Positions 998 to 64,000 of a DNA stretch of 64,000 nucleotides are shown one piece after another. How positions within the stretch are numbered: position 1 is the stretch's first letter; each line of letters starts with the position of its first letter. Origin of the DNA: Promethearchaeia archaeon (GTDB taxonomy: Archaea > Asgardarchaeota > Lokiarchaeia > Sigyniarchaeales > SOKP01); assembly GCA_029856045.1 (NCBI GenBank), contig JAHQWG010000048.1, positions 1 through 64,000 on the forward strand. Reading direction: 5' to 3'. The position numbers and the translations under genes are program-made. The notes under the pieces are model-generated. The model worked only from the letters and a program-made list of their open reading frames with translations. It did not search any database and was not told the DNA's origin.

Positions 998-2107
998 CTG
1001 AATAATTCAATAAATGTTTGTTATTTTGGGACTTATACAAAAGATACTATTCGAAATAGAGTCTTAATTAAAGGTTTAATTAACAACGGTATTAATGTAT
1101 TTGAATGTAATGAGAGAAGTCCAACATTATTAGAACTAAATAAAGGAAAATATATCATTAATTCTTTTGCACGTGTTTTAAAATTATTAAGGAAATTTAT
1201 AAATAGATATGATATTGATGTAGTAATTGTTGGGTATCCCGGATTTGATTCTGTGCTTCAAGTGAAGCGATTAACCAATAAACCCATTATTTATGACCCA
1301 TTTATTTCTTCTTATTTATCTTATGTTTATGATTACAAATATGTTAATGAAAAATCTCTATTAGCAAAATTATATTATTTTATTGATTATTTTTCATTTA
1401 AGCAAGCAAATTTAATATTAACGGATACCAAAATCCATGGAAAGATCTTTTCTAAATTTTTTAACCAAAACAAGGAGAAATTTGAGACTGTTTTGGTAGG
1501 TTCTGATTCCGATATTTTTTTTCCTCAAGGTCACAAGAACGAGAGTGATAAATTTATAATTGGTTTTTATGGTAAATATCTTCCGTTGCAGGGGGTAAAG
1601 ATCATAATAGCAACCGGAAAAATTCTAAAAAAATATCCAGAAATTAAGTTTGAAATTATTGGAGGGAGCCCAGAAAATAAGTTATACCGAGAGATTTTTA
1701 GATATAAAATTAAAAATAAGTTGGATAATATAGAATTAATACCACCTGTTCCGTTAAGTCAATTGCCGGAGAAAATTGCAAGATCTGATATACAGCTTGG
1801 AATTTTTGGGGGTACCTTAAAATCTAAAATTGTAATTCCAAATAAGGTCTATTCTGCCTTAGCAATGAAAAAGCCTGTTATTACTGCAAATAGCTTAGCA
1901 GTAAGGGAACTTCTGACTCATGAAGAAAATGTTTATTTATGCAAAAATGCAGATATTGATTCATTAGTTAGTGCGATTATTAAATTATACGAGGATAAAA
2001 ATTTAAGGGACAGCATTGCTCGAAATGGCTTTAAATTATTTAAAAAATATTTAACTCCTCAAATAATAGGAGCAAATTTAAAAGATATAATTATAAACTT
2101 ATTGTAA
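998..2107 (+). CDS. Glycosyltransferase family 4 (GT-B)
   Basis: C-terminal GT4 features (FYGKYLPLQG; PNKVYSALAMKKPVIT). The frame is open 85 codons upstream of the tracked GTG (1253) and encodes the N-terminal strand NVCYFGTY..RNRVLIKGL. Probable CTG start at 998. Confidence 0.85.
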   Translation: MNNSINVCYFGTYTKDTIRNRVLIKGLINNGINVFECNERSPTLLELNKGKYIINSFARVLKLLRKFINRYDIDVVIVGYPGFDSVLQVKRLTNKPIIYDPFISSYLSYVYDYKYVNEKSLLAKLYYFIDYFSFKQANLILTDTKIHGKIFSKFFNQNKEKFETVLVGSDSDIFFPQGHKNESDKFIIGFYGKYLPLQGVKIIIATGKILKKYPEIKFEIIGGSPENKLYREIFRYKIKNKLDNIELIPPVPLSQLPEKIARSDIQLGIFGGTLKSKIVIPNKVYSALAMKKPVITANSLAVRELLTHEENVYLCKNADIDSLVSAIIKLYEDKNLRDSIARNGFKLFKKYLTPQIIGANLKDIIINLL

Positions 2108-10303: not shown

Positions 10304-10557
10304 TAAGATTTAAACCAATTAAATTAAATTAGAAATTTGAATAAATTTTTAAATTGAAAAATCAACTAAACAAATAATCTTGTATATTAAAAGAATTGAA
10401 TTAAAATAAAAATTATAGTAATAAAAATTTGGATTGAATATAAAAAGAGAAACGACATTTTGTAAAAAAATTTATAATATTATATTTACATGATTTACGT
10501 ATAAGGGTAAATTATTTTTATTGCTCATATCTCAATATTCCACAGAATGATTCCCAG

Positions 10558-11052
10558 ATGTCCGAAGAAGATAAATATAGTAAAATTGTAAAACAAATTA
10601 AATCAGAATTGGAAACCAATACTTTAATCGCAAATAAATATGGTGTAATATTAGGTTCTGAAATTGAAGATTTGAATAAAGGAAAAATTATTCCGCCAGA
10701 AATTTTGGATTTGATAAATCAGAGAGCGAAATTCGCTAAAAGTCTTAAATTGAAAGAAATATATTCAATAATTTTAGAAAGCGAAAAAGCTTTTTTCTTA
10801 ATTACTAAAACTAGTGAATTAATTTTACTAGCGCAATTAAAAAAAAGTGTAGATTTATCACAACTTATTCCAAGTGTAAAAAAGTTTCTCGAAAAATTAG
10901 CAGTGGGTATTGCAAAAAAACTTGAAATTGATGAATTTTCAAAATTTGAATTCGTAAAAGAAATAATTAAGTTAGATGATTCATTAAAAACAGATGAACA
11001 AAGGCAGCTAAAATTTAATATTATTAAAGATTTAATTAAATATATTTCATAA
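10558..11052 (+). CDS. Roadblock/LC7-like protein with C-terminal extension
   Basis: Helix, TLIANKYGVILGS beta-hairpin, helix, three strands (SIILESE/FLITK/LILLAQ), helix; directly upstream of a small-GTPase gene. Confidence 0.6.
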   Translation: MSEEDKYSKIVKQIKSELETNTLIANKYGVILGSEIEDLNKGKIIPPEILDLINQRAKFAKSLKLKEIYSIILESEKAFFLITKTSELILLAQLKKSVDLSQLIPSVKKFLEKLAVGIAKKLEIDEFSKFEFVKEIIKLDDSLKTDEQRQLKFNIIKDLIKYIS

Positions 11053-11113
11053 ATTTGTATAAATAAATTTAAAACGTGTATTATAAGTTAAAAGTATAAG
11101 ATTTAATATTTAG

Positions 11114-13105
11114 GTGAATATTATTCTAAGGCAAGTTTATATTTATAAAGAGGGTGAATTGATATATTCCTGTCAGTTTGGCAAGGCATTAACGCAAGAA
11201 GATTTTACTAGTTTGTTCAAACAACTACGTAAAGATGCTATGGCTGCACCAAGTGATAAGATTGAATATCATGATTATTATAAATATAGAATCACATACG
11301 CTACAGAAAAAAAATTAGATTTAATGTTTCTATTTGTAACCGGTTTAACTGATTCATCCAAAGATATTAAAACTGAATTGCTTAGATGTAAAAGGGAATT
11401 TCTGAATCTTTTTGGGGATATAATCAAAACTGAATTTGATTCTAAAACTTTTGAAGTATTTGACCCAACAATTGATGTAATTCATAAAAATTTACGCCCC
11501 AAAATTTCACTCGTAGGATTTTCTGGTGTTGGAAAGACAACAATAACTAGATTAATTAGGGCTGAAGAAATACCGATGGAACATATCCCTACTATAACTG
11601 GAGATATAGCAACTATAAAAATAGGGAAATTACACTTTCACTTATGGGATTTTGCAGGACAAGAACAGTTTAGCTATTTATGGAATAACTTTGTTAAAGG
11701 TAGTGACGCAGTCCTTCTCATTACAGATTCAACTTTAGAAAATATAGAAAAAAGTAGATTTTTCCTCGATTTAATAAAAGATGAAGCACCCCACGCACAT
11801 ACTGCAATAATTGGAAACAAACAAGATCTTTCAGATGCTCTTCCTGTAACAGAAATTGAGAATATTTTAGGTTTAAAAACTTATAAAATGATTGCAAATA
11901 AAAATGAAAATCGGGATAAAATGATTACAATAATTGCTGATATCCTTGAAATGAGTTCAGAAGTAAGCCCCTTATTGAAACCATTGATTGAGAGAGATAA
12001 ATTATTACAAGACGCTGAATTATCACTTAATGAAGGCAATTTCCAAAATTCTTTAACCTTATTTGAAAAAATTGCGGATTTATGTCTTGATTTAGGTGAT
12101 GATAGTTTAGGAAATGAATTTAATGAAAAAGCCCAGAAGATTAAAGAAATTTTAGTAAAGATGGAAACAACACCAGTTGAGATTGTTAAACCAAAGGAAG
12201 AAGGAGTTCAACCTGCATCGGTAAAATCAACATCACCTGAACCCAAAGTTGCTCCTAAACCGGCGATTCCTAAACCACCAGTAATAATAATACCAGATGC
12301 AGCTGAACCTAAAGCTGCTCCTAAACCGGCGATTCCTAAATCACCAGCAATAAAAAAACCAAGTGTACCAGAACCTAAAGCTGCTCCAAAACCAGCGATT
12401 CCTAAACCACCAGCAATAAAAAAACCAAGTGTACCAGAACCTAAAGCTGCTCCAAAACCAGCGATTCCTAAACCACCAACAATAAAAAAAACAACTGTAC
12501 CTGAATCCAAAGTTGCTCCAAAACCAACTTCACCTAAATCACAATCCACACAGCCAAAATTAACAATTAATCTCGCAGATTTTAAAATTAAACCCCGTCC
12601 AACAAATATCTTATCCGCAAAAACCACCGGACCTAAACAATCATTAACGGTCAGTCCGTTTAGTGCTATAAAACAAGAAGAAACTCAACCAAAACCATAC
12701 ACTACTAAACCCAAATCACCATATCAACAACCCTTGCCTGATTCTAAGAGACCATCTCCGCCAATGCAAATACCACAGCCACCCATCCCACCGAAAGCTC
12801 CCCCTCAAACCTCTATTCCAAAGCCTATGACTCAACCAACACCAGCTAAAACCAAACCCCCAATAACAATCATAAGTGACCAAGGAGGTACACAAAAAGA
12901 TGAACTTGAAAAAACTTTAATGGATTTAAAGATTAAATTTGCAAATATTTCTAAAATGGAACTCGACCTTGATATGAAAGAAATTTCAGGGGAAATAACC
13001 TCAGAAGAGTTTAATGAGAAATCACAAAAAATTAAAGCCATAAAAGAGAATATTTCAAAACAAATTGAAGATATTCAGAATCTGTTAAATAGTTTTAGCG
13101 CATAG
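11114..13105 (+). CDS. Multidomain Arf-related GTPase: longin-like domain, G domain, MIT/TPR-like bundle, Pro-rich repeats, C-terminal helical hairpin
   Basis: G1 GFSGVGKTT, G2 PTIT, G3 WDFAGQE, Arf-type LWNNF, G4 GNKQD. N-terminal longin-type pattern. True start may be ATT at 11123. Confidence 0.88.
   Translation: MNIILRQVYIYKEGELIYSCQFGKALTQEDFTSLFKQLRKDAMAAPSDKIEYHDYYKYRITYATEKKLDLMFLFVTGLTDSSKDIKTELLRCKREFLNLFGDIIKTEFDSKTFEVFDPTIDVIHKNLRPKISLVGFSGVGKTTITRLIRAEEIPMEHIPTITGDIATIKIGKLHFHLWDFAGQEQFSYLWNNFVKGSDAVLLITDSTLENIEKSRFFLDLIKDEAPHAHTAIIGNKQDLSDALPVTEIENILGLKTYKMIANKNENRDKMITIIADILEMSSEVSPLLKPLIERDKLLQDAELSLNEGNFQNSLTLFEKIADLCLDLGDDSLGNEFNEKAQKIKEILVKMETTPVEIVKPKEEGVQPASVKSTSPEPKVAPKPAIPKPPVIIIPDAAEPKAAPKPAIPKSPAIKKPSVPEPKAAPKPAIPKPPAIKKPSVPEPKAAPKPAIPKPPTIKKTTVPESKVAPKPTSPKSQSTQPKLTINLADFKIKPRPTNILSAKTTGPKQSLTVSPFSAIKQEETQPKPYTTKPKSPYQQPLPDSKRPSPPMQIPQPPIPPKAPPQTSIPKPMTQPTPAKTKPPITIISDQGGTQKDELEKTLMDLKIKFANISKMELDLDMKEISGEITSEEFNEKSQKIKAIKENISKQIEDIQNLLNSFSA
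12239..12525 (+). repeat. 66-bp coding tandem repeat (EPKAAPKPAIPKPPAIKKPSVP), ~4.3 copies
   Basis: Units start at 12239, 12305, 12371, 12437 and 12503. Confidence 0.92.
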
Positions 13106-16516: not shown

Positions 16517-17491
16517 TTAAATTGCATAATTTCTACTTTTGGACCATTCAATATAATCCTTAAGCCCTGATTGAATATCATATTTTGGCTCAAATTTTAA
16601 AATTTTATTCGCTTTTTTAATATCCGCAAAACTATCTCGAATATCACCTGGTCTGGGATCCGTATGATCAACCCTTAAATGCTCTTTCCCGCATACTTCT
16701 TTCATAATAGCTGCAAGTTTATTTACTGTAATTGGAGAGCTCGCTCCTATATTGAACATCTCACCTGAAATATTCTTCGTTGCCCCGGCAAGCAAATTTG
16801 CATCTACCACATCTTTAATGTAAGTGAAATCCCGACGCTGCTCCCCATCTCCAAACACAATCGGATTTTCATTCCGGTATATCCGCCCCAGCCAAATCGG
16901 TATAACTCCGCTATACGTTGAGTCCTTCTGTCTCGGACCATAAACATTGAAATACCTTAACGCTACGGTGTTTAAACCATAAACCTTAAAATAGGCATAA
17001 AGATACTTCTCACACGCCAACTTTGCTACGCCATAAGGAGAAATTGGGATAAGATTCATATCCTCCCTTTTCGGTAAGGTCGGTGTATCCCCATAAACCG
17101 ATGAACTCGAGGCAAAAATGATTGCTTCTACGTCCCGAATCCTCGCAGCATTCAAAATATTGAGCGTGCCACCAACATTCACCTCATTGCAAGTAATTGG
17201 CATCTTGATAGATTGCGGAACACTCGTAAATGCAGCCTCATGATAAATGATATCAATATCCTCGCACACCTCCAATAAAAACCCAAAATCCCGAATATCA
17301 GCCTTGTGAAATGTGAAATTCGGATTTTGCAGCGCACCACCCAAATTTTCCATACGACCGTTGAATAAATTATCAAGCCCAATTACATGTGCTCCTTTCT
17401 CCAAGAGTGTATCGGTCAAATTGCTGCCGATAAACCCTGCAGCACCTGAAACTAAAATTTTTATCCCGTCTAAATCTAAAATGTAAATCAC
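16517..17491 (-). CDS. NAD-dependent nucleotide-sugar epimerase (GalE/WbpP-like)
   Basis: GAAGFIGS, HEAAFTSVPQS, SSSSVYG, PISPYGVAK, LRYFNVYGPRQ. Confidence 0.93.
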   Translation of the reverse strand: MIYILDLDGIKILVSGAAGFIGSNLTDTLLEKGAHVIGLDNLFNGRMENLGGALQNPNFTFHKADIRDFGFLLEVCEDIDIIYHEAAFTSVPQSIKMPITCNEVNVGGTLNILNAARIRDVEAIIFASSSSVYGDTPTLPKREDMNLIPISPYGVAKLACEKYLYAYFKVYGLNTVALRYFNVYGPRQKDSTYSGVIPIWLGRIYRNENPIVFGDGEQRRDFTYIKDVVDANLLAGATKNISGEMFNIGASSPITVNKLAAIMKEVCGKEHLRVDHTDPRPGDIRDSFADIKKANKILKFEPKYDIQSGLKDYIEWSKSRNYAI

Positions 17492-18359: not shown

Positions 18360-18977
18360 GTGAAAAATATAAAATTAAATTTAGAATATATATTATTAGA
18401 TTATAAAAAAGATGTAAAAAAAGTTTCAATTTCTAAAATGGATGATTTTAATTCAAATTTTTCCCAAGCAAGAAAGTGGATTTTAAGTTTTATTGGAGAT
18501 ATAAATCGAATAAAAAGAAGTTTTGATTTCGAGGATTATTCTGATGCTATTTTTAGAACTCAATTTGCTGTTGAGAAACTTAATAAAGCTATTTTAATTT
18601 TATTTGGATTAAAAATTAAAAAAACTCATACTCCATCAGATGCTATTAATGAAGACTTAATTTCTGAAAGAATAAAGATTTTAGATGAAGAAACAGAGAA
18701 ATTGTTATCAAAAATAACAAAGTCAACTAGAAAATTTGAAAAATTAGGGACTACTCCAAGATATGGGTTTGTTAGAGATAACGAACTAGTATTACCAGAG
18801 GAGCTTTATTCTTCAAAAGAGGATATAGAGCATTTGTTAAATGAATTCTTAACAATTTCAGAGGATTTTTTAATATTACTTAAAGGAAAATTTTCAAAAA
18901 ATGAGACAATTAAAGTGATTATAAAAAAATTAAGCAAATGTGTAGGAGAATATAAAGCATGGATAGAGAAAAAATAA
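18360..18977 (+). CDS. HEPN domain protein
   Basis: AIFRTQFAVEKLNKAIL..KTH..RYG; overlaps the downstream MNT gene. Confidence 0.82.
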   Translation: MKNIKLNLEYILLDYKKDVKKVSISKMDDFNSNFSQARKWILSFIGDINRIKRSFDFEDYSDAIFRTQFAVEKLNKAILILFGLKIKKTHTPSDAINEDLISERIKILDEETEKLLSKITKSTRKFEKLGTTPRYGFVRDNELVLPEELYSSKEDIEHLLNEFLTISEDFLILLKGKFSKNETIKVIIKKLSKCVGEYKAWIEKK

Positions 18978-20652: not shown

Positions 20653-23600
20653 ATGTTTGAGAAACCATCACCCCAGCAATTAGCCGAGGAGGCAGTTCGG
20701 CATTTAGATTTAGCCGAGAAATTTGAATCTCAGGAGAATTGGGCAAAAGCTATTGAAGAGTATTCAAAAGCTGTTGATTTATTAAAGCGGAGTGGATTAC
20801 TATCGCTTCATATTGATGATATAAATGAGCGAATTAGGCATTTGACTCAAATATCTCAACAAAACAAGGCTTTGCAGCGAAAGAAAGCCGAAGCTGAGTT
20901 TTCTGGTTTAAGGGATGAAGCATTTCACTTTTTGGATAAGGCAAAGTCTTTAGAAGTCAATGGTCGTTATCAAGAAGCCATATCTTGTTATTCTTCTGCT
21001 ATAAAGTTATTGGAACAGGCTAAATGGGATGAGAGTTTATTAGGACAAATCAAGTTAAAACTTGAAAAATTAGTGGGAATCTTCAAACAACAACAAATTA
21101 TGGCCCATCAAAGAGCATTACAGACTGAACAGGCACCTATTAAGGTTGAAAAGTCTTTTGGAGCTCCGGAAACCACAATTGTTCCTGCAGGACTTGATAA
21201 ACGAAGTAAATTACGAATGGAATTTGAGACTCAAAAACGAAAGGAAGAGGATATACAAAATAGTGCATTTGAAGCGATTGATATGGGTAAAAAGCTTTTA
21301 GAGGAAAAGAATTTCAACGTAGCAAAATCAAAATATCTCGAAGCTTTAGACCTATTGAGATCTATTGGATGGACTGATGAAAATTTGTCTTATTTGTATG
21401 GTGATATTGATTCCGTTGAAAGGCAGAGGGTAGCATTTGAAAAGGTGGAAGGTCAGAAAGTTGAACAGGCTGCAAGAGATACACCCCAACCAATTATTTC
21501 GGAGATATATCCTCAGAAAGAAATAGTTCCAGAAATTATGGACGTACAATCAAAAACAATAATGAAATATGAAGCGAAAAAAAGACGTGAGGATGAGGTT
21601 CAAAAGAAAGCATTTGAATTGATGGATGAGGGAGAGCGTTTAATAAAGGTCAAGGAATTTGATGAAGCCATGGAAAAGTATGGTATGGCTGGGCAGCTCT
21701 TAGAATCTATTGGGTGGGCTGATCAATTAGTTCATATTAATAAAATCATTGATAAGATAAATAAAGATAGAGTAAATTATAAGAAATTGCAGACACAGCA
21801 AATTAAAGCAAAAAAAGAAGCGGTTACTGCACCAGTCCCTGAAATCTCAGCAAAAGCAAAAGCAGATATTGAAGTTAAAAAGCAGAAAATAGTAGAGTTT
21901 GAAGAACGAAAAAAGCATGAAGAGAGTATTCAAAAAGAAGCTTTTAAGATGATTGATATTGCAAAACGATTTGAGCGAGATAAGCAATATGACGGGGCAA
22001 TCGAGAATTTTAATGGAGCAATTGATTTATTACAATCAATAGGGTGGACTGATTATGTTAAACCAATATACAAGTTCATCTCGGATATTAGAAGAAGACA
22101 AGAAAATGAACAGAAAGTACTCGAGGAGAAAAAATCTCGAGAGAAAGAATATTTAAAATTCCAAGAAATTATAAAAAAGCATGAAAAGATTCAAACGGAG
22201 CAGGGATTAGAGGGAATTTCCCTAAAACAGAAAGAGCTTGAAAAGACACGAGAAATAGATCACGCAAAAGAGAAAAAAGCTTTTAATGTAATAAATGAAG
22301 CCGATGAATTGGTAAGAAAAGGCAGTTATGAAAAGGCAATAAAAACTTATAAAAAGGCACATGATATTTTTAGAGAGATAGGTTGGGTTGAACAAATTGC
22401 GACAATTGAAACTACAATAAATACAGTTCAACATAAATATAGAGAATTTTTAAAAAATGACGAGAAAGCCACGGAATTAAAAGTTAAGCGTGCTGTAGAA
22501 GATGAAGAATTTCGAAAAACAATTGCCGAGCAGATTCGAAAAGAAAGGGAAAAGTTAGAGAAGAAAAAGATCGAAATTAGAGAATATGAAACAGAGATTG
22601 AATATCGGAAGAAAAGAAAGGTTGAAGCTTTTAAAATTTTAGATGAGGCAGAAGAATATACATTGCGTGGGGATTTTGATGTTGCCATAGAAAAATATTA
22701 CATGGCATCAATGATTTTTGTAGAAATTCAATGGACTGATGAATTATCACTCATTCAAAGTGTTATTAGAAATCTTGAAAATAAAAAGAAAGAAAGGAGG
22801 CTTTTAAGTCTAAAGGAGAGAGAAGATGGGTTAAAAAGAGAAAAGGAAACAAAAGAATTTCAAGCCAAAATTTCTGAACAATTAAGAGAGGAACGTGAGA
22901 AGTTAAGAGAAAAAGAGATTACAGTTAGAGAATATGAAAAAGAAGTGAAATATCGGGAAAAACAAAAGGATAAAGCATTTAAGATCTTAGATGATGCTCA
23001 AAAATTAACAATCAGTGGAGATTTTGATGAAGCTATAGAAAAATATGAAGTAGCTTCGATTATTTTTGCAGAAATTCAATGGGATGATGAGTTGGCACTT
23101 ATCCAGAATGCAATTCGAGATCTTGAGAATAATAAGAAGGAAAGAGAATTAAGGGAACAAAAGATTCGAGAAGAGTTATTGAAACGTGAGCAAGAAACAC
23201 AAGAATTTCAGAATATGATTGCTAAAGAATTAAGGATAGAGCGTGAAAAGTTAAGAGAAAGTCAAATTACGTTAAGAGAATATGAACAAGAAGTAGATTA
23301 TCGTGAGAATCGAAAAAATGAAGCTTTTGATATTTTAGATGCTGCAAAGATGTTAATAATGAGGGGGGATTTAGATGCTGCGATTGAAAAATATCATGAG
23401 GCATCAATTATTTTTGCTGAAATTCGGTGGACAGAAGAGTTGGCACTTATTCAAGGTGCAATACGCAAACTTGAGCAAAAAAAGAAAGAGAAAGAACTTT
23501 GGGAACAAATTGTAAGAGAGGAATCTATCAAAAAGGAACAAGAAGTAAGAGAATTTCAGCATGAAATTGCTTTAATCAAGAGTCAACAAGAAGAGAAAGT

Positions 23601-26600
23601 AAAATTTGCACAATATATTCAAGAGCAGAAAGAAATCTTATCAGAGCAGAAATTAAAGAAACAAGAAGAAGCATTGAAAATGCTTGAGACTTCATATGAA
23701 CATATAAGTAATGGAAATTTAGATGAGGCTATTAGAATTCATAAATCGGCAATAGAAATTCTTAATCAAATTGGTTGGAAAAGTCCTTATCTTAGGGTAA
23801 TTAAAGATACACTGGAGAATTTAAATAGACGTAAGATTGAAATCGTACAAAAGCTACAGCGCCAGAAGGAATTAACAGTTAAACATGAAGCTGAAGAAAG
23901 AGAATTTCAAGCGAGAATTACTCATAATATTGAGTTAGAAAAGAAAAAAATGTATGTTAAAAAAATCGCGACTCAGACTAAAGAACGATTACTTGCTTAT
24001 CGAGAAAAAGAGCGTATTGAAGCATTTGATGTAATGAATAAGGCGGAGATTTTAACAAAACGTGGAAATTTTGATGAATCTTTAGATCTTTATCGTCAAG
24101 CTGATATTATTTTAAGTGAAATTCAATTCCCCTCACATGCTGTTAAAGAAATGATACAGAAAATTAAATTGAAACAAAAGGAACAAAAAGAATTATTACA
24201 GAAAGAAAGAAAGATTCAAATTCATAGGCAATTAGAAGAGGCAACATTTCAAAAAGAAATTACTCGTCGGTTAGCATTTGAGAGAGAGAAGATGATAGTG
24301 AAGAAAATAGCTATCGAAACACGCGAGAAAATAGAAGTATATCGTGAGCAAAAACGAGAGGAAGCATTTAAGATATTAGATGAGGCAGAAGATTTAACAA
24401 AAACTGGAAATTTTGAGTTGGCAATTAATAGATATCGAAATGCTATGCTTCTTTTAAGTAAAATACAATATCCTGTTGATTCGATTCATGAAATGATAGG
24501 AAAGGTTCGTTTAAAAAAGATTGAACAAGAAGAAATTAAACGAAGAGAAATTGACCTAGCAGCCCGAAGAGAGATAGAATCAAGAGAATTTCGGGAGAAA
24601 ATTGCTTGGGAATTAAGAAGAGAGAGTGAGAGATTAGCAAGAAGGACAATTGCTCTCATAGAATATGAAGCTGAAGTAGAATATCGTGAAGATAGAAAAA
24701 AGGAAGCTTTTGATGTGTTAGATTCGGCAAAGTTATTAACACTTAGAGGTGATTTTGATGCATCTATTGAGAAATATCGGGAAGCTTCTATAATATTAGC
24801 GGAAATACAATGGACAAAAGAATTAACACTTATTCAAAATACAATTCGCCAACTGGAAAATAGAAAGAAAGAACGAGAACTTTGGGAACAACAATATCGA
24901 GAAGAAGCAATTAAACGAGAGATTGAAGAGAGAGAATTTCAAGAAAAAATTACTGAAATTTCAAGAAAGGAGCGTGAAAAATTAAGAGAAAAAGAGATTG
25001 CACTTAGGGAATATGAACAAGAAAAAGAATATCGAGAAAAAAGGAGGGATGAGGCATTTAAGATTTTGGATAAAGCAGAAAAATTTACTATTGCTGGAGA
25101 TTTTGATGTAGCTATAGAAAAATATCATGAGGCATCTATTATTTTCGCTGAAATACAATGGACAGAGGAGTTAGCACTTATTCAGAATGCAGTTCGTGAT
25201 CTTGAATATAAAAAGAAAGAACGGGTATTTTGGGAACAAAAAGCTCGAGAGAATGCAATTTGGAGGGAATTAGAAGCAAAGAAATTTCAAACAGATATTA
25301 CTGAGGCATTAAAAAAGGAGCATGAAAGATTAAAGGAAAAAGAGATTGCAATCAGAGAATATGAAAAAGAAGTAAAATATCGGGAGATGAGAAAAGAAGA
25401 AGCATTTCATATTTTAGATTCGGCACAAATTTTAACAATGAGGGGAAATTTTGATGAGGCTATTGAGAGATATCATGAAGCCTCAATAATTTTAGCAGAA
25501 ATTCAATGGATAGAAGAATTAAATCATATTCAAAATGCAATTAGTGAGCTTAATAAGAAAAAGAAAGAAAGAGAGCTTTGGCAACTAGAATTAAGAGAAG
25601 CAGCACTCAAACAAGAGCATGAAATAAGAGAATTTCAGCATAAAATTTCTATAATGAAAAAGAGTGAAGAAGATAAAGTAAAAATGGCACAATTTATTCA
25701 AGAACAACAAGGGGTTTTATCAGAACAACAATTAAAAAAGCAAAATGAAGCGTTGAAGATGCTTGAAGTTGCAGATACTCATATAAAAAGAGGTCAATTA
25801 GATGATGCTATTGAAATTTATAGGTTAGCAGTAGATATTTTTAATAAGATAGGATGGAAGGGTTCTTATCTTAAAGTAATACAAGACACATTTGATAATT
25901 TAACTCAACGAAAATTTGAAGTTGAACAAATAAAACAACATCAAATTCAATTAGCAGCTCAACGTGAAGCAGAAGAAAGAGAATTTCAAGCTAAAATTAC
26001 TCGAAGTATAGAATCCGAAAAGAAGAAAATGCTGGCAAAAGAAATTGCTATTCAAACTCAGGAACAAATAATTGCTCATCGAGAGAAAAGACGTAACGAA
26101 GCATTTGATAATATGGATAAAGCAGAGGAATTAACTAAAACTGGAAAATTTGATGAATCATTAACACTTTATCGCCAAGCTGATATAATATTAAGTGAAA
26201 TTCAATTTCCATCATATGCGGTAAGAGAAATGATACAGAAAATCAAGATAAAGCAAAAGGAACAAGTGGAATTACGTCAAAAAGAGAGAGAAATTCAAAT
26301 AAAAAGACAACAAGAAGAAGAAGCATTTCAAAGAGAAGTTGCTCGTCAGGTAGCGCTTGAGAGAGAGAAGATGAAAGTGAAGGAAATCGAAATTGAGACT
26401 CAAGAAAATGTAAGAGCATACCGAGAAAAACGTCGAAATGAAGTATTTAATATATTAGATGAGGCGGAACTCTTAACAAAAAGAGGTAACTTAGATTTAG
26501 CCATTGATACTTATCGTAAAGCCGCTCTTTATCTAACTGAAATTCAATATCCGGTTGATGCAATTTATGAAATGATTAGTAAACTTCGCATTAAAAAAAT

Positions 26601-29436
26601 AGAACAAGATCAAATGAAACAGCAAGAAATTGAAGCATCTACTCGAAGAGAGCTTGAATATAGACGTTTTCAGGAAGAGATTGCTCAAGCATTGAAAAGA
26701 GAAGAGGAAAGACTCAAAGAAAAAGAAATTAAGCTTAGAGAATATGAAAAAGAAAAGGAATATCGTGAAAAAATAAAGGATGAAGCATTCATTATTTTAG
26801 ATAAGGCAAAACAATTTACGGCTAGGGGAAATTTTGATGCCGGTATAGAGAAGTATCACGAGGCTTCAATAATTTTAGCTGAAATTCAATGGACAGAGGA
26901 ATTAAGAAATATTCAAAATGCCATTCGAGAACTTGAAAAGAGAAAGAAGGAAAGAGAACTTTGGGAGCAAAAAGCTCGAGAAGAAGCACTTAAGAGGGAA
27001 CAAGAAGCGAGAGAATTTCAATACAATATTTCGCAAATGAAAGCAATGAACGAAGAAAAAATAAAAATGGCTCAATTTATTCAAGAGCAACAAAAGGTTT
27101 TATCAGAGAGAAATTTTTTAAAGCAAAATGAAACGCTAAAAATGCTTGAAGTTGCAGATGCACATATAAAAAGAGGTAAATTAGATGATGCTATTGAAAT
27201 ATACATGTCTGCTATGAAAATTTTTAATGAAATAGGGTGGAAAGGACCATATTTAAAATTAATTCAAGATACACTAGATAATTTAAATAAGCGTAAATTC
27301 GAAATTGAACAAATTAAACAACAAAAAATTGAGTTAGAAGTTAAACGTGATGCAGAGGAGAGAGATTTTCAAGCAAAAATTGCACAAGGTATAGAGATAC
27401 AAAAACAAAAAATGCTAGCAAAAAAAATTGCTATTCAAACTCAAGAAGAAATATTTGCCCATCGTGAAAATAGGCGTAAAGAAGCATTTGATATTATAGA
27501 TAAAGCTGAAAAGATGACGAAAGAAGAAAATTTTGATGATGCGTTAAGGCTATACCGTCAAGCCGACATATTTTTGAGTGAAATTCAATTCCCATCAAAC
27601 ATTGTAAAAGAAATGATACCGAAAATTAAATTAAAACAAAGGGAACAAGAAGATTTACGGCAAAGAGAAAGAGAGATTCAAATTCAAAAACAATTAGAAG
27701 AGGAGGGATTTCAAAGGGAAATTGCTTATCATATAAAGCTTGAGAAAGAAAAAATGAGGTCAAAAAAGACTACACTTGAAGCACAAGAAATAATTAAAGA
27801 TTATCGCGAACAAAGAAGAGAAGAAGCATTTAGAGTGCTAGAAGAGGCAGAACAATTAACCAACTCCGGAAAATATGAATTGGCAATTGGTACTTATAGA
27901 AATGCCATGTTAATTCTTAGCGAGATTCAATATCCTACCGATTCAATTAATGAGATGATTAAAAAAGTTCAGAATAAAAAATTAGAGCAAGAACATCTTA
28001 AACATATAGAAATGGAAGCAGTGCTCCAAAGAGAGCAAGAAGAAAAGTACCTTGAAGAAGAGATTGCCCAAAAAGTTCAGTTAGAACAAGGAAGAATGAT
28101 GGAGAAGTTAAAAGCTATTGTATCACGTGAAAAAATACAAGTACGTTTTGAACAACGAAGAGAAGAAGCATTCAAGGTATTAGAAGAAGCAGAACAATTA
28201 ATTAAAACTGATAAATTTGATGAAGCAATTGAAACATACCGAAAAGCTTCATTAATTCTAAGTGAAATTCAATATCCCTTAGAGTCAATTAATGAGATGA
28301 TCAGAAAATTACAAATGAGAAAATCCGAACAAGCACAGATTATTCAACAAGAAAAAGAAGCACGACTCCAGAGAGAAAGTGAAGAAGCCGAACTTAGAAG
28401 AATTATTGAAGAGCGTCAGCGTCAAGAAGAGGAGATGAAAAGAGCAAAATATTTGGCTCTAAAGCAAAGGGAGGAATTAATTAAAAAAGTAGAAAGTCGT
28501 AGAGAAGTTGCATTTTCCCTATTGGAGAATGCTGATAAATTTTTAAAGCAATTCCCTCCTGATTTTGATAAATCAATTGAGTTGTATTTAGAAGCAAGAA
28601 ATGTTCTTTTAGAGATAAATTGGGAGCCAGAAATTGCGAATTTAGACGCTATGATCAGAAGTTTAAGAGAAGAAAAACAAAAATTTATCATTCAACAAAA
28701 ACAAGAAGAAGAGGCTCGAATTCGTGCTGCTGAAGAATATGAGAAATTTAACCAAGAAATTCTAAGAAAAAAGTTAGAAGTTCAAAGAGTTCAAGAAGTA
28801 CAACGGATGAAACTTGAAGCATTTAAATTTGAACAAGAACAACGAGAAAAACTTCAACAAGAGGGTTTTAATCTTCTTGATGATGCGAAAAAATCAGTTT
28901 TAATGCATCAGTTTAATTTTGCTTACGAGCAATTTGATCAGGCTATTGAAAAATTTAAGAGGATTGGTTGGTTTGAACAGATAAAATATATTGAAAAGGA
29001 AATAGAGACCACTAAGAAATTAGAAGAAAATGCAATAAAAGCACAAGAAGAAGTTAAAAGAGCTCAAGAGGCACTCTTAAAACAAAAAGGATTGGAAGAC
29101 CAGCGGCGAATAGAAGAAGAGACAATAAAAATACATTCAGTCAAGGAAATTACAGCAATTTCAGATGACATTATCAAATCGTTAAGACAACAACGATTAG
29201 AACAAGAAAGTACTCAAGTTGTTTCTAAAGAACAAATTAAATCAGATGCTGCAAGTTTTGCAAAAGAGTTAACAAAAATGATTAAAATCAAACAAGATTT
29301 GATGGCTGAAATTGCAAAAGCTGAAGAAGACGAGAAAGAAAAAACAACAGAGAAAGAAAAACAAAAAACTAAGGAAGAACTTAAAGAACTACATAAGTGG
29401 ATAAAAGATGCTGCCAAAAAATCAAAGAAAAAATAA
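20653..29436 (+). CDS. Giant (2927 aa) all-helical repeat protein: 25 MIT/TPR-like units with E/K/R/Q-rich spacers
   Basis: Recurrent EAF.ILD.A....G.FD.AIE.Y..A..I..EI(Q/G)(W/Y/F) every ~115-117 aa; no signal peptide or TM segment. Confidence 0.9.
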   Translation: MFEKPSPQQLAEEAVRHLDLAEKFESQENWAKAIEEYSKAVDLLKRSGLLSLHIDDINERIRHLTQISQQNKALQRKKAEAEFSGLRDEAFHFLDKAKSLEVNGRYQEAISCYSSAIKLLEQAKWDESLLGQIKLKLEKLVGIFKQQQIMAHQRALQTEQAPIKVEKSFGAPETTIVPAGLDKRSKLRMEFETQKRKEEDIQNSAFEAIDMGKKLLEEKNFNVAKSKYLEALDLLRSIGWTDENLSYLYGDIDSVERQRVAFEKVEGQKVEQAARDTPQPIISEIYPQKEIVPEIMDVQSKTIMKYEAKKRREDEVQKKAFELMDEGERLIKVKEFDEAMEKYGMAGQLLESIGWADQLVHINKIIDKINKDRVNYKKLQTQQIKAKKEAVTAPVPEISAKAKADIEVKKQKIVEFEERKKHEESIQKEAFKMIDIAKRFERDKQYDGAIENFNGAIDLLQSIGWTDYVKPIYKFISDIRRRQENEQKVLEEKKSREKEYLKFQEIIKKHEKIQTEQGLEGISLKQKELEKTREIDHAKEKKAFNVINEADELVRKGSYEKAIKTYKKAHDIFREIGWVEQIATIETTINTVQHKYREFLKNDEKATELKVKRAVEDEEFRKTIAEQIRKEREKLEKKKIEIREYETEIEYRKKRKVEAFKILDEAEEYTLRGDFDVAIEKYYMASMIFVEIQWTDELSLIQSVIRNLENKKKERRLLSLKEREDGLKREKETKEFQAKISEQLREEREKLREKEITVREYEKEVKYREKQKDKAFKILDDAQKLTISGDFDEAIEKYEVASIIFAEIQWDDELALIQNAIRDLENNKKERELREQKIREELLKREQETQEFQNMIAKELRIEREKLRESQITLREYEQEVDYRENRKNEAFDILDAAKMLIMRGDLDAAIEKYHEASIIFAEIRWTEELALIQGAIRKLEQKKKEKELWEQIVREESIKKEQEVREFQHEIALIKSQQEEKVKFAQYIQEQKEILSEQKLKKQEEALKMLETSYEHISNGNLDEAIRIHKSAIEILNQIGWKSPYLRVIKDTLENLNRRKIEIVQKLQRQKELTVKHEAEEREFQARITHNIELEKKKMYVKKIATQTKERLLAYREKERIEAFDVMNKAEILTKRGNFDESLDLYRQADIILSEIQFPSHAVKEMIQKIKLKQKEQKELLQKERKIQIHRQLEEATFQKEITRRLAFEREKMIVKKIAIETREKIEVYREQKREEAFKILDEAEDLTKTGNFELAINRYRNAMLLLSKIQYPVDSIHEMIGKVRLKKIEQEEIKRREIDLAARREIESREFREKIAWELRRESERLARRTIALIEYEAEVEYREDRKKEAFDVLDSAKLLTLRGDFDASIEKYREASIILAEIQWTKELTLIQNTIRQLENRKKERELWEQQYREEAIKREIEEREFQEKITEISRKEREKLREKEIALREYEQEKEYREKRRDEAFKILDKAEKFTIAGDFDVAIEKYHEASIIFAEIQWTEELALIQNAVRDLEYKKKERVFWEQKARENAIWRELEAKKFQTDITEALKKEHERLKEKEIAIREYEKEVKYREMRKEEAFHILDSAQILTMRGNFDEAIERYHEASIILAEIQWIEELNHIQNAISELNKKKKERELWQLELREAALKQEHEIREFQHKISIMKKSEEDKVKMAQFIQEQQGVLSEQQLKKQNEALKMLEVADTHIKRGQLDDAIEIYRLAVDIFNKIGWKGSYLKVIQDTFDNLTQRKFEVEQIKQHQIQLAAQREAEEREFQAKITRSIESEKKKMLAKEIAIQTQEQIIAHREKRRNEAFDNMDKAEELTKTGKFDESLTLYRQADIILSEIQFPSYAVREMIQKIKIKQKEQVELRQKEREIQIKRQQEEEAFQREVARQVALEREKMKVKEIEIETQENVRAYREKRRNEVFNILDEAELLTKRGNLDLAIDTYRKAALYLTEIQYPVDAIYEMISKLRIKKIEQDQMKQQEIEASTRRELEYRRFQEEIAQALKREEERLKEKEIKLREYEKEKEYREKIKDEAFIILDKAKQFTARGNFDAGIEKYHEASIILAEIQWTEELRNIQNAIRELEKRKKERELWEQKAREEALKREQEAREFQYNISQMKAMNEEKIKMAQFIQEQQKVLSERNFLKQNETLKMLEVADAHIKRGKLDDAIEIYMSAMKIFNEIGWKGPYLKLIQDTLDNLNKRKFEIEQIKQQKIELEVKRDAEERDFQAKIAQGIEIQKQKMLAKKIAIQTQEEIFAHRENRRKEAFDIIDKAEKMTKEENFDDALRLYRQADIFLSEIQFPSNIVKEMIPKIKLKQREQEDLRQREREIQIQKQLEEEGFQREIAYHIKLEKEKMRSKKTTLEAQEIIKDYREQRREEAFRVLEEAEQLTNSGKYELAIGTYRNAMLILSEIQYPTDSINEMIKKVQNKKLEQEHLKHIEMEAVLQREQEEKYLEEEIAQKVQLEQGRMMEKLKAIVSREKIQVRFEQRREEAFKVLEEAEQLIKTDKFDEAIETYRKASLILSEIQYPLESINEMIRKLQMRKSEQAQIIQQEKEARLQRESEEAELRRIIEERQRQEEEMKRAKYLALKQREELIKKVESRREVAFSLLENADKFLKQFPPDFDKSIELYLEARNVLLEINWEPEIANLDAMIRSLREEKQKFIIQQKQEEEARIRAAEEYEKFNQEILRKKLEVQRVQEVQRMKLEAFKFEQEQREKLQQEGFNLLDDAKKSVLMHQFNFAYEQFDQAIEKFKRIGWFEQIKYIEKEIETTKKLEENAIKAQEEVKRAQEALLKQKGLEDQRRIEEETIKIHSVKEITAISDDIIKSLRQQRLEQESTQVVSKEQIKSDAASFAKELTKMIKIKQDLMAEIAKAEEDEKEKTTEKEKQKTKEELKELHKWIKDAAKKSKKK
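22620..28200 (+). repeat. Higher-order repeat in the giant protein: (AAABCD)x2 + ABCD + D
   Basis: Unit types are defined by EIQWTEEL (A), IGWK.PYL (B), SEIQFPS (C) and IQYP (D). B units lie at ~23671, ~25750 and ~27133 (spacings 2079 and 1383 nt). Confidence 0.85.
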
Positions 29437-33491: not shown

Positions 33492-34001
33492 CTAATCCAT
33501 TGCGTATTTTTTCGTCCAGTTCTCTGCTTTCTTATCAAATTTCGATTTTTGTTTAAAATATTGCTCTCCTGCTTCATGATTTAAAGGATCGCCGGGATTA
33601 AAAAATGGTGGTTCCACATGCATCATTCCCTTCAATGCTTCGACAATATTTGTTAATGTTTTAGAAGGAGTCCACCCCGAAGCCCCAGTAGAGGCATCAA
33701 CCTTACCGACTAGATCGGGATTAATAAGATCAAGACAAATATTCAATTTTCCTGGTGGAATTGAAGAGTCGATATTAGGATGCCACATTAAAGTATGAGC
33801 ATATACATATGGAGGTGCAAAAGGATAGTTCTCGGGCATTTTTATCTCGAATAAAAATTTACCTCCTGAATACGGAATTCCTGGCTTTCCTATTATTGAA
33901 AGCCTAAGGTGGTCTATTGATCTTCCCCAAGGTTCGATAATAACGAATTGATTATCTTTAAATGCCTCAAGCGCCTCTGCATAATCAGTTTCTTCTCTAA
34001 T
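33492..34001 (-). CDS. Ubiquitin-conjugating enzyme E2 (UBC), ~169 aa
   Basis: IIGKPGIPYSGGKFLFEIKMPENYPFAPP, WHPNI, catalytic ICLD, WTP, DPLNHEAG, WTKKYA. The tracked ORF (33839) lacks the first 54 codons; the frame opens at ATT 34001. Confidence 0.94.
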   Translation of the reverse strand: MREETDYAEALEAFKDNQFVIIEPWGRSIDHLRLSIIGKPGIPYSGGKFLFEIKMPENYPFAPPYVYAHTLMWHPNIDSSIPPGKLNICLDLINPDLVGKVDASTGASGWTPSKTLTNIVEALKGMMHVEPPFFNPGDPLNHEAGEQYFKQKSKFDKKAENWTKKYAMD

Positions 34002-34006
34002 TTTTT

Positions 34007-34012
34007 ACACCT
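34007..34012 (-). promoter_or_regulatory. Shine-Dalgarno-like AGGTGT of the E2 gene
   Basis: Minus strand reads AGGTGT-AAAAA-ATT; an in-frame TAA rules out any start further upstream. Confidence 0.6.
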
Positions 34013-37683: not shown

Positions 37684-37815
37684 CCCCTGGTAGCTCAGTG
37701 GTAGTAGCGCACGGCTGTAGATTTTTATCGCGTATTGAGAAAAAGATCAATGAAAATACGTCAGCTAAAGCGAATAGATACCGTGTGGTCGCTGGTTCAA
37801 ATCCGGCCCAGGGGA
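37684..37815 (+). tRNA. tRNA-Tyr(GTA) with a 59-nt intron at 37/38 (37721-37779)
   Basis: Acceptor CCCCTGG/CCAGGGG plus A73 (C1:G72); anticodon stem CACGG/CCGTG with GTA at 37717-37719; T arm GCTGG-TTCAAAT-CCGGC; central helix CTGT/ATAG with 3-nt bulges; CCA not encoded. Confidence 0.95.
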
Positions 37816-37853
37816 CTTTCTATTTTTTTTTATTTTTAGAAAACTTAGAAAAT

Positions 37854-44118: not shown

Positions 44119-44439
44119 TTCTAATCGAATTTTTATTTTCTCTTTAATATTAAATGTAAAACCCATTTCTAAGAGTTATTTAATCTTAGATTTTAAAAAG
44201 TTTTAAGAACATGCTCTATTATTTATTTTTTTTTAATTCTCTTATTTTTTCTACTTTTAACTAAATTCCATTAATTTATCGTGTTGAATAGTTATGAACA
44301 AAAAATAAAAATTCGGTGGATAATTGAGAAAAAAAATTAAAAATAAACATAATTTTTATTTGATAATTGTGACAATATTTAAAAACATATAGAGAGAGAT
44401 CTATACATTTAATTAAACTTCATATGGGTGTAATAATCT

Positions 44440-47286
44440 ATTAAACGAAACAATTTTAAATTAGTCTTATTGATCTCTTTGATCATTTTTTTTAGTGGCT
44501 TCACAGCTATTTCTCTCTATAATAACATCAATTTATTGAAGGATAGTGTCGTCGAAGATTTAGAGAGATTTTCAGATGAATTAAAAATTTCTGCTTGGAA
44601 TTGGAGCACGACCAAGGTTGTCTCCACGGAAAGCACAGAGGATTCTGGATATCCAACAATCGCAGTGGACGGTTCCGGAAACGTGCACATCGCATGGTAT
44701 GATGAGACGGAATATGGTGGATCGGGAGATGATTGGGATATATTTTATAAGCACTGGAACATGACCACGGCGAACTGGACTACGACGGAGGTGATCTCCA
44801 CGGAAGGCACTAATGTTTCTTATACTCCAACAATAGCAGTTGACGATTACGGAAACGTATTTATTGCATGGGAAGATCTTGCGGATTATAACAATTCGGG
44901 AGTGGACCGTGATATATTTTATAAGTATTGGAACGCGACTACGGCGACCTGGACCACAACCGAAGTCGTTTCCACGGAAAGTACTGGTTCTTCTTATTTT
45001 TCAACAATGGCAGTGGACGGTTCAGGAAACGTACATATTGCGTGGAATGATTATACGAATTATAAAAGTTCAGGAGGGGATCTTGACATATTTTATAAGT
45101 ATTGGAACGCAACCACGGCGACTTGGAACACGACCGAGGTGGTCTCCACGGAAAGTACTGCTTTTTCTTCAGAGCCAACAATAGCAGTGGACGGTTTCGG
45201 AAACGTATATATTGCGTGGGAGGATCAAACGGATTATAAAAGTTCAGGAGCGGACAATGATATATTTTATAAGTATTGGAACGCGACTACGGCGACTTGG
45301 AATACGACCGAGGTCATCTCTAATGAAAGCACTAGTGATTCTTGTTCTCCAACATTAGCAGTGGACGGTTCCGAAAACGTGCACATTGCGTGGCATGATG
45401 AGACGGAATATGGTGGATCGGGAGATGATTGGGATATTTTTTATAAGTATTGGAACGCAACCACGGCGAACTGGACTACGACGGAAGTGATCTCCACCGA
45501 AAGCACTGATGATTCTTTTTCTCCAACATTAGCAGTGGACTTTTTGGGAAAATTGCACATTGCATGGCAGGATGAAACGAATTATGGCGGTTCGGGAGGT
45601 GATTATGACATATTTTATAAACACTGGAACGCGACCACGGCGACTTGGACCACGACCGAGGTAATCTCCACGGAAAGCGCTGGTAATTCTCATTCTCCAA
45701 CAATAGCAGTGGACTTTTTGGGAAAAGTGCATATTGCATGGACTGATAAAACGAATTATGGCGGTTCGGGAGGCGATGATGATATATTTTATAAAAAATT
45801 CATATTATCTCCATCGGATCCATCAATAGTAATAAATAATGGAGATGCGAGTACAAATTCCACCTTAGCGAATCTCACGCTCTCGGCGGATGGAGCAGAA
45901 GAAATGTGTTTTAGAAATGGGACATCCATATTTTGGACTAATTGGGAAGCATACGCCACAACAAAACAACTATATTTAGAAGGCTCTACAAATAATACGG
46001 GATATTCAATCTATGTGAAATTTCGAAATGCAACAGGAGTATCTCCCCAAGTCGGTGATAGCATTTTATTTTTAATTTTCACACCCTTGAATCCATCAAT
46101 AATTATAAATAACGGAGATGCAAGTACAAATTCCACCTTAGTGAATCTCACGCTTTCAGTGGATGGAGCAACAGAAATGTGCTTCAAAAATGGGACGGAT
46201 GTTACATGGACCAGTTGGGAGGCGTATATTACGACAAAACAGTTGTATTTAGAAGGGTCTACAAATAATACGCAATATTCAATCGATGTGAAGTTTCGAA
46301 ATGCAACAGGAGAGACCTCCCCAGTTGGTGATAGCATCCTCTATTTAATTTTCACACCATTGAATCCATCAATAATTATAAATAATGGAGATGCAACTAC
46401 TGATTCTGTCTTAGTGACTCTCACGCTCTCGGCGGATGGAGCAACAGAAATGTGCTTTAGAAATTGGACGGGTGGTTCATGGACCAGTTGGGAGGCGTAT
46501 AGTACAACAAAACAGTTGTATTTAGAAGGCTCTACAAACAATACGGAATATTCAGTCTATGTGAAATTTCGAAATGCAGCAGGAGAAACTTCCCCAGTCG
46601 GTGATAGCATCCTATATTTAATTTTCACACCATTAAATCCATCAATAGTAATAAATAATGGAGATGCAACTACTGATTCTATCTTAGTGAATTTAACGCT
46701 CTCGGCGGATGGAGCAACAGAAATGTGCCTTAGAAATGGGACGGGTGGTGCCTGGACCAGTTGGGAGGCGTATAGTACAACAAAACAGTTGTATTTAGAA
46801 GGCTCTGTAAACAATGTGGTATATTCAATCTATGTGAAATTTCGAAATGCAATAGGAGAGATTTCCCCAGTCGGTGATAGTATCCTATTCTTAATTTACA
46901 CACCATCGAATCCATCAATAATTATAAATAATGGAGATGCGAGTACTGATTCTACCTTAGTAACTCTCACACTCTCGGTGGATGGAGCAGACGAAATGTG
47001 TTTCAGAAATGGAACAACTGGTACATGGACCAGTTGGGAGTCGTATGGTACAACAAAACAGTTATATTTAGAAGGCTCTGTAAACAATATGGAATATTCA
47101 ATTTATGTGAAATTTCGAAATGCATTAGGAGATACTTCCCCAGTCAGTGATAACATTCTATATTTGATCACGGAAGAAACGGTAATCCCTGGATATCCAG
47201 TCGGATTTATTATCATTTCATTACTTGCAGGAATAGGAGTAATTGTAATTCTTAATAAATCTAAGAGAATAAAATTGAGAAACTAA
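44440..47286 (+). CDS. Cell-surface glycoprotein: 7-bladed propeller-like region, 5 Ig-like repeats, Loki-CTERM
   Basis: Signal peptide (n-region KRNNFK from ATT 44440; track starts at 44470), many N-x-S/T sequons, C-terminal IPGYP-TM-basic tail. Confidence 0.88.
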   Translation: MKRNNFKLVLLISLIIFFSGFTAISLYNNINLLKDSVVEDLERFSDELKISAWNWSTTKVVSTESTEDSGYPTIAVDGSGNVHIAWYDETEYGGSGDDWDIFYKHWNMTTANWTTTEVISTEGTNVSYTPTIAVDDYGNVFIAWEDLADYNNSGVDRDIFYKYWNATTATWTTTEVVSTESTGSSYFSTMAVDGSGNVHIAWNDYTNYKSSGGDLDIFYKYWNATTATWNTTEVVSTESTAFSSEPTIAVDGFGNVYIAWEDQTDYKSSGADNDIFYKYWNATTATWNTTEVISNESTSDSCSPTLAVDGSENVHIAWHDETEYGGSGDDWDIFYKYWNATTANWTTTEVISTESTDDSFSPTLAVDFLGKLHIAWQDETNYGGSGGDYDIFYKHWNATTATWTTTEVISTESAGNSHSPTIAVDFLGKVHIAWTDKTNYGGSGGDDDIFYKKFILSPSDPSIVINNGDASTNSTLANLTLSADGAEEMCFRNGTSIFWTNWEAYATTKQLYLEGSTNNTGYSIYVKFRNATGVSPQVGDSILFLIFTPLNPSIIINNGDASTNSTLVNLTLSVDGATEMCFKNGTDVTWTSWEAYITTKQLYLEGSTNNTQYSIDVKFRNATGETSPVGDSILYLIFTPLNPSIIINNGDATTDSVLVTLTLSADGATEMCFRNWTGGSWTSWEAYSTTKQLYLEGSTNNTEYSVYVKFRNAAGETSPVGDSILYLIFTPLNPSIVINNGDATTDSILVNLTLSADGATEMCLRNGTGGAWTSWEAYSTTKQLYLEGSVNNVVYSIYVKFRNAIGEISPVGDSILFLIYTPSNPSIIINNGDASTDSTLVTLTLSVDGADEMCFRNGTTGTWTSWESYGTTKQLYLEGSVNNMEYSIYVKFRNALGDTSPVSDNILYLITEETVIPGYPVGFIIISLLAGIGVIVILNKSKRIKLRN
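44596..45801 (+). repeat. Seven 174-bp (58-aa) coding repeats
   Basis: W.TTEV.STES...S..PT.AVD..G.VHIAW.D...Y..SG.D.DIFYK.WNATT x7. Confidence 0.93.
45811..47165 (+). repeat. Five 273-bp (91-aa) coding repeats
   Basis: PSI.INNGDA.T.S.LV.LTLS.DGA.EMC..NGT...WT.WEAY.TTKQLYLEGS.NN..YSIYVKFRNA.G..SPVGDSIL x5. Confidence 0.93.
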
Positions 47287-63494: not shown

Positions 63495-63590
63495 ACTATT
63501 ATATTTTAATTTTAAAATATTTATTATTTCTTAGAAAATTTTAAATTTCTAAGATTTTATTTATTTAATAAAATTATTATTCTTAAATAG

Positions 63591-63854
63591 GTGATAAAAA
63601 TTAATCTTGAATCTACTGTAAGTGATAAAGGATTAACCACAATACCAAAGGAGATCCGAAAAAAACTCAATATTAAAAAGGGAGATAAATTATATTGGAT
63701 TTTTAAAGAACAAGAAAGAACTGAATTAATTGTTATTAAAAAACCACTTAAATTTCTAAAAGGAAGATATGCTCAAAAGGATCTAACTTATGAGAAACTA
63801 GAACACAAAGCTGATGAACTAATTGAAAAAAAGGTGGAAAATAAATCCCGCTAA
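63591..63854 (+). CDS. AbrB/MazE/SpoVT-family antitoxin
   Basis: TVSDKGLTTIPKEIRKKLNIKKGDKL.W. Confidence 0.9.
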   Translation: MIKINLESTVSDKGLTTIPKEIRKKLNIKKGDKLYWIFKEQERTELIVIKKPLKFLKGRYAQKDLTYEKLEHKADELIEKKVENKSR

Positions 63855-64000
63855 TCGAATTAGATTTAATGATTGGATTAGTTTCTAAAACTGATAGATT
63901 TCATGAACTTTCAATAAAGATTTTTGATAAGATTAAAAAAAATTACATTAAAAATGTGTATATTCCATCTAGCGCATATTTAGAATATGAATTACTGCTA
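63845..64000 (+). CDS. PIN-domain (VapC-like) toxin, 5' part, truncated by the window end
   Basis: (ATC)PLIELDLMIGLVSKTDRFHELS..VYIPSSAYLEYELLL; overlaps the antitoxin end; SD AGGTGG at 63832. Confidence 0.75.
   Translation, partial: MPLIELDLMIGLVSKTDRFHELSIKIFDKIKKNYIKNVYIPSSAYLEYELLL

Follow-up and report, generated by a model that had tools for sequence, protein, structure and literature searches.

Many intact genes of this uncultured Loki-type (Promethearchaeota) Asgard archaeon and of its family, including six or seven in the 64-kb stretch of DNA analysed here (the window), begin at ATT, ATA or ATC (ATH) a few bases behind a ribosome-binding site (SD), so that standard gene callers cut these proteins short. 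We reach this conclusion with good confidence from sequence comparison, without protein-level or ribosome-profiling evidence. The original prediction, which described seven non-canonical initiation sites (ATT, ATC or CTG) behind AGGTG-type SD motifs and suggested relaxed start-codon selection and widespread mis-annotation of N-termini, was confirmed for the presence of the sites and supported in its interpretation, with three qualifications: ATA, which it did not list, is as common as ATT genome-wide; the CTG case is unresolved; and relaxed selection as a mechanism remains inferred.

The window is the first 64 kb of a 95-kb contig, in an assembly of 3.34 Mb in 55 contigs with a G + C content of 29.4%. 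The genome has an archaeal 16S gene, whose 3′ end reads GGATCACCTCCT, and intron-bearing tRNA genes. Sequence inspection found all seven motifs. The E2, PIN and glycosyltransferase (GT4) genes each have an in-frame stop at most two codons upstream of the proposed start, whereas the GTPase, epimerase and AbrB genes share the arrangement TAG-GTG-A-N5-ATT, in which the only upstream canonical codon is the GTG inside the SD. The ATH codons of the window lie at spacings 6, 6, 6, 6, 8 and 9 from the SD, while ATG starts in this genome peak at an aligned spacing of 6-8.

Genes with proposed non-canonical starts and other features noted (window positions unless a contig is named)
Feature	Position	Strand	Proposed start	SD	In-frame upstream stop	Other candidate or first canonical codon	Remarks
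E2 (UBC-fold) gene	33492..34001	-	ATT 34001-33999	AGGTGT 34012-34007, then AAAAA; 6 nt between GGTG and ATT	TAA 34007-34005, started by the last base of the SD	ATG 33839, 54 codons downstream	169 codons plus stop
PIN/VapC gene	63845..64000	+	ATC 63845	AGGTGG 63832-63837, then N7; inside the 3′ end of the AbrB gene	TAA directly before the ATC	ATG 63869, 8 codons downstream	146 codons; runs past the window end to contig position 64282, with the stop at 64285
AbrB/MazE-type antitoxin gene	63600..63854	+	ATT 63600 (probable)	AGGTGA 63589-63594, then N5		in-frame GTG within the SD	
Arf/Roc-type small-GTPase gene	11123..13105	+	ATT 11123	AGGTGA 11112-11117, then N5		in-frame GTG within the SD	long N-terminal extension
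NAD-dependent epimerase gene	16517..17482	-	ATT 17482 (probable)	AGGTGA 17493-17488, then N5		in-frame GTG 17491 within the SD	
GT4 glycosyltransferase gene	998..2107	+	CTG 998 or ATA 1010	AGGTTT 987-992, then N5 to the CTG (SD-like AGGT at spacing 6)	TGA 992-994	GTG 1253, 85 codons downstream	
Large surface protein gene	44440..47286	+	ATT 44440	GGGTG 44426-44430, spacing 9	TAA TAA	TTG 44470	ATT follows GGGTG-TAA-TAA-TCT
Possible eighth case	18360-18371	+	ATA 18369, spacing 6	GTGA-N5-ATA arrangement		in-frame GTG 18360, part of GATGTGA	heads a 205-codon ORF
ORF with long leader	10444-10560	+				ATA 10501, weak TGAT motif at spacing 8	start unresolved
ORF with long leader	15571-15424	-					start unresolved
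ORF with long leader	63137-63044	-					start unresolved
ORF with long leader	101-227	+					start unresolved
Giant ORF, presumably a surface protein	20653-29436	+	ATG	AGGT, then N7			2,927 codons; normal start
tRNA-Tyr (GTA)	37684-37816	+					59-nt intron
Initiator tRNA (CAU)	contig C27: 220557-220656	-					intron of roughly 20 nt next to the anticodon loop
aIF1 (SUI1) gene	contig C27: 190727-191116	+				GTG or, four codons later, ATA	no ATG before the zinc knuckle
tRNA-Sec (TCA)	contig C1: 2264-2356	-					

Orthologue alignments placed the N-terminus at or next to the proposed codon in every case. For E2, the UQ_con domain (PF00179, E=7.5e-25) covers residues 22-162 of the ATT-started product, corresponding to profile positions 19-139; the domain therefore starts near residue 4, and the first ATG, at residue 55, lies inside it. 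The translation carries the HPN motif and the catalytic Cys (WHPNIDSSIPPGKLNICLD), and the product would begin (M)REETDYAEALEAFK. In 19 relatives with usable loci the aligned codon is always followed by R-E-E-(T/N)-D-Y, with an in-frame stop within a few codons upstream; it is ATT in 6 more genomes (three of the same genus and three from other genera), ATC in 1, ATG in 8 and TTG in 3. The SD plus spacer is identical in three other species of the genus. The genomes with ATH carry GGTG-type SDs, and those with ATG mostly do not. Within the genus, the 53 E2 codons upstream of the first ATG show pN/pS of 0.15-0.26 at pS of 0.47, and are therefore translated in this frame.

For the PIN gene, the PIN model covers residues 12-126 (profile positions 11-118), so the domain begins at the ATC, and the first ATG lies after the first conserved Asp. 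Two orthologues from other genera keep ATC behind AAGGTG(G/A)A, and three paralogues have ATG at that codon (M-P-L-I-E/D-T-D/S). The MazE_antitoxin hit of the AbrB gene begins at residue 9 counted from the in-frame GTG; one orthologue has ATG aligned to the ATT, with a stop where the GTG would be, and another has ATT. For the surface protein, a same-genus orthologue and an in-genome paralogue have ATG at the aligned codon, followed by K/T-R-x-x-F-K-L. Starting at the downstream TTG, which remains possible, would remove the basic n-region.

For the GTPase, among 16 relatives the aligned position is ATT, ATA or ATC in 14 and ATG in 2, and a wider scan gave 79 species with ATT in 45, ATA in 22, ATC in 5, ATG in 6 and ACG in 1, each followed by L-R-Q-V/I. 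GGTG is found 6-7 nt upstream in 69 of the 73 non-ATG loci. Same-genus species keep ATT at both the E2 and the GTPase sites despite synonymous divergence of about 0.3-0.5, whereas more distant species interchange ATG, TTG, ATT, ATA and ATC at the same aligned position. The GTPase has a conserved 125-residue N-terminal extension, and a weak, sub-threshold CdvA-like coiled-coil hit at its C-terminus (PF18822, 24.6 bits against a cutoff of 30). Some MAGs whose GTPase is about 70% identical to this Loki-type gene are labelled Hod-, Hermod-, Odin- or Thorarchaeota in their records, and these submitter labels look inconsistent with sequence relatedness.

The two remaining genes are less clear. The Epimerase domain starts at residue 12 counted from the in-frame GTG. 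Relatives start one codon downstream of the ATT at ATG, TTG or GTG; a same-genus species has TTG there, and this genome has TTA. The ATT is thus probable, but the GTG is not excluded. For GT4, the conserved I-C-(Y/F)-F-G motif lies upstream of the first canonical codon and a non-canonical start is forced, but its identity is open: the homologues' ATG aligns with the ATA, four codons after the CTG, while SD spacing favours the CTG, and both codons are kept in three orthologues. Readthrough of the TGA, or fusion with ORF 227-994 in the same frame, was rejected, as a same-genus orthologue has several stops in that frame and the upstream ORF has no Pfam domain.

To determine whether such starts are used genome-wide, 2,817 ORFs of at least 100 codons whose frame scores best by codon usage were taken; of these, 133 have at least 30 codons after the upstream stop with no ATG, GTG or TTG, and 51 have at least 50. 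Four ORFs of the window (listed above as ORFs with long leaders) have 31-49 such codons before their first ATG or TTG. A plain tally of triplets downstream of every AGGTG, GGTGA or GGAGG showed no ATG peak, as most occurrences are inside genes, and a test over all leader codons with a wide spacing window gave only 1.6-fold ATH enrichment, because background SD-like 5-mers are frequent. Gene-anchored tallies by spacing were therefore used. Confident ATG starts show a moderate SD signal, about 19% having an exact 5-mer of AGGAGGTGATC, peaking 7-8 nt from the GGTG. In ORFs with at least 25 canonical-free codons after the upstream stop, the in-frame codon at spacing 7 is ATA in 15, ATT in 13 and ACG in 4 of 43 counts; at the neighbouring in-frame positions, spacings 4 and 10, ATH is 4/40 and 3/44, and ATT or ATA reaches at most 18% in the other well-populated spacing classes. 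The filter drops GGTG-type SDs at spacings 6 and 9, where the GTG is in frame, so the sharpness of the peak at 7 is partly a filter effect, and the count is conservative. Over all SD-headed ORFs, ATH is 82/323 of non-canonical codons at spacing 6-8 against 288/2241 at spacing 13-24 (25% against 13%; Fisher p=2e-8). Control codons of similar composition (AAT, TTA, TAT) give 4% where ATH gives 21%.

Eighty-nine genes have a 5-mer-SD-backed non-canonical codon at the head of the ORF (ATT 42, ATA 35, ATC 8, CTG 2 and ACG 2), and 45 of them have no canonical codon in the next ten codons. Of 20 such genes searched against Pfam, 8 had an N-terminal domain, and in 7 of these the domain begins upstream of the first canonical codon and 4-53 residues after the proposed ATH: AFOR_N (6-204), ETF (14-190), adh_short (10-206), PAS (18-127), Zn ribbon (4-26), DUF7065 and Hydant_A_N. 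From the SD tally we estimate that ATH accounts for roughly 13% of SD-led starts, and from the leader-length distribution, with a geometric expectation of 3.7% canonical codons per coding position, that 6-10% of genes start this way.

The same pipeline was applied to samples of other genomes. A same-genus species and another genus of the family, pooled, gave ATH in 29% at spacing 6-8 against 15% at 13-24 (p=0.019), with 2.3% of ORFs of ≥200 codons having a leader of ≥40 codons, compared to 2.0% in this genome. A sister-family genome (Ca. Harpocratesius repetitus, 31% GC, 1.2 Mb sampled) gave 19% against 12% (p=0.08) and 0.7% (p=0.025 against this genome). The habit is family-wide and is weaker, though not clearly absent, in the sister family. 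A GC-rich same-order genome (53% GC) was unusable as a control, because long stop-free leaders arise there by composition.

We suggest that in the clearest cases a GGUG-type SD pairs with the 16S 3′ end and places AUU, AUA or the rarer AUC, 6-8 nt downstream, in the P site, where the ordinary initiator Met-tRNA would be accepted despite a mismatch at the third codon base; CUG or ACG may be used occasionally. Strong AT mutation pressure keeps turning ATG into ATA or ATT, and the change is tolerated where an SD fixes the position. That Met-tRNAi reads these codons with adequate efficiency, and that lowered discrimination by aIF1 or the ribosome is the cause, is inferred. The one initiator tRNA found has anticodon CAU, A1:U72 and three G-C pairs closing the anticodon stem. 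No second copy or variant was found by motif search or blastn, although tRNA detection was incomplete (25-35 genes by ARAGORN and Rfam, many with introns at odd positions; the default mode of ARAGORN missed the tRNA-Tyr of the window) and a second initiator-like tRNA cannot be fully excluded. Only about 13-20% of starts in this genome have an exact 5-mer SD, and most ATH-start candidates, like most genes here, have none; SD positioning therefore cannot explain the ATH-start genes that lack an SD.

On the GTPase tree ATG arose six times, and in five of those six the GGTG of the SD is lost; it never goes the other way (sign test p=0.06, the best possible with five informative pairs; naive Fisher p=3e-5). 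SDs in front of ATH starts contain the GGTG core in 68% of cases against 23% for SD-led ATG starts, which more often use GGAGG or AGGAG, but SD length does not differ. These results fit SD-anchored placement with a tolerated third-base mismatch and compensation between codon and SD, although this reading is an inference. A further possibility, which we put forward only tentatively, is that behind a GGUG-type SD 6-7 nt upstream the third base of the start codon is effectively unread (AUN) in this family: the codon proportions at the GTPase start are roughly those expected from base composition alone, and the site changed at least 19 times on the tree. It would also mean that initiation rate is tuned jointly by codon and SD.

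Alternative explanations appear less likely. Initiation only at the next canonical codon, with the upstream stretch an untranslated remnant or the genes decaying pseudogenes, agrees with gene-caller models, and database E2 entries 97% identical to this one are 115 aa, while homologues with canonical starts are 169 aa. However, the truncated products would lose the first 50 residues of the UBC fold, the first PIN Asp, the Rossmann glycine motif and most of AFOR_N, among others; the E2 leader is under purifying selection, the frames stay open, and the ATH is kept across genera, so this is very unlikely. Chance is even less likely. ATH codons do make up 10.8% of all codons in this AT-rich DNA, but the enrichment is specific to the spacing at which ATG peaks, the control codons do not show it, the sister-family genome at 31% GC shows a weaker signal, and orthologues place ATG at the same codon.

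For the GTPase, epimerase and AbrB genes, the in-frame GTG of TAGGTGA, a normal archaeal start, could itself be the start codon and its likeness to an SD coincidental, and for the epimerase no relative excludes this. We nevertheless consider it unlikely for the three, as in at least five GTPase relatives the GGTGA is shifted by one base so that TGA is an in-frame stop, yet ATH and the protein are kept; GGTGA sits at a fixed distance in nearly all non-ATG GTPase orthologues; the AbrB orthologue with ATG has a stop in place of the GTG; and GTG is rare as an SD-spaced start in this genome. A dedicated mechanism, such as a modified C34 on the initiator tRNA (as may occur with f5C in mitochondria), an unrecognised second initiator tRNA, or an altered aIF1 or aIF2, is compatible with the high and old use of these codons and with the incomplete tRNA detection. 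It remains doubtful, as the only initiator-like tRNA found by sequence search is standard and the use of ATT, ATA and ATC fits loss of third-base reading better than a new specific pairing, although no factor was examined in depth.

Initiation at AUU, AUA or AUC behind an SD is known in bacteria (E. coli infC and pcnB; alternative initiators ATT, ATC, ATA and CTG of NCBI table 11), with an Ile-type codon at normal SD spacing, presumably read by the initiator tRNA. In bacteria, however, it concerns a handful of genes per genome, often with a regulatory purpose (IF3 autoregulation), whereas here it concerns an estimated 6-10% of genes of all kinds in an archaeon with eukaryote-type initiation factors. 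Mitochondria probably also use AUA, AUU and AUC as initiators in very AT-rich genomes, but with one tRNA-Met for initiation and elongation, and with AUA read as Met in table 2; here a separate, standard initiator tRNA exists. Eukaryotic near-cognate initiation involves homologous factors (aIF1, aIF1A, aIF2) and appears to favour first-base variants such as CUG, found by scanning; the codon counts and SD spacing reported above do not fit that pattern. The only Asgard mention found in the literature searched is a rare ATT start codon of the tubulin gene atubA in a Kariarchaeaceae MAG (Sci Adv 2026, PMC13394414), where the deposited protein lacks the first beta-strand and an upstream ATT at a plausible distance from an RBS restores it. 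That paper treats it as a one-off in a different Asgard lineage, whereas here it is systematic and conserved across a Lokiarchaeial family.

Reviews state that archaea start at AUG, GUG or UUG, and that SD sequences are rare in Lokiarchaea. A lineage that routinely accepts third-base mismatches behind an SD bears on how start-codon fidelity evolved on the eukaryote-type ribosome, and offers a natural system for studying the trade-off between start-codon and SD strength. Asgard proteomes are mined heavily for eukaryote-like proteins such as E2 enzymes, small GTPases, tubulins and ESCRT components, for structure prediction, phylogeny and expression; if 6-10% of genes in this family start at ATH, default gene callers truncate or miss those proteins, the E2 here losing a third of its fold and the VapC a catalytic Asp. 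The aIF1 gene would, from the ATA, encode a product beginning M-P-N-D-Q-N-I-C-P-K-C, which would be of interest if start-codon fidelity is autoregulated as in infC. The presence of a tRNA-Sec gene indicates that this archaeon probably makes selenoproteins.
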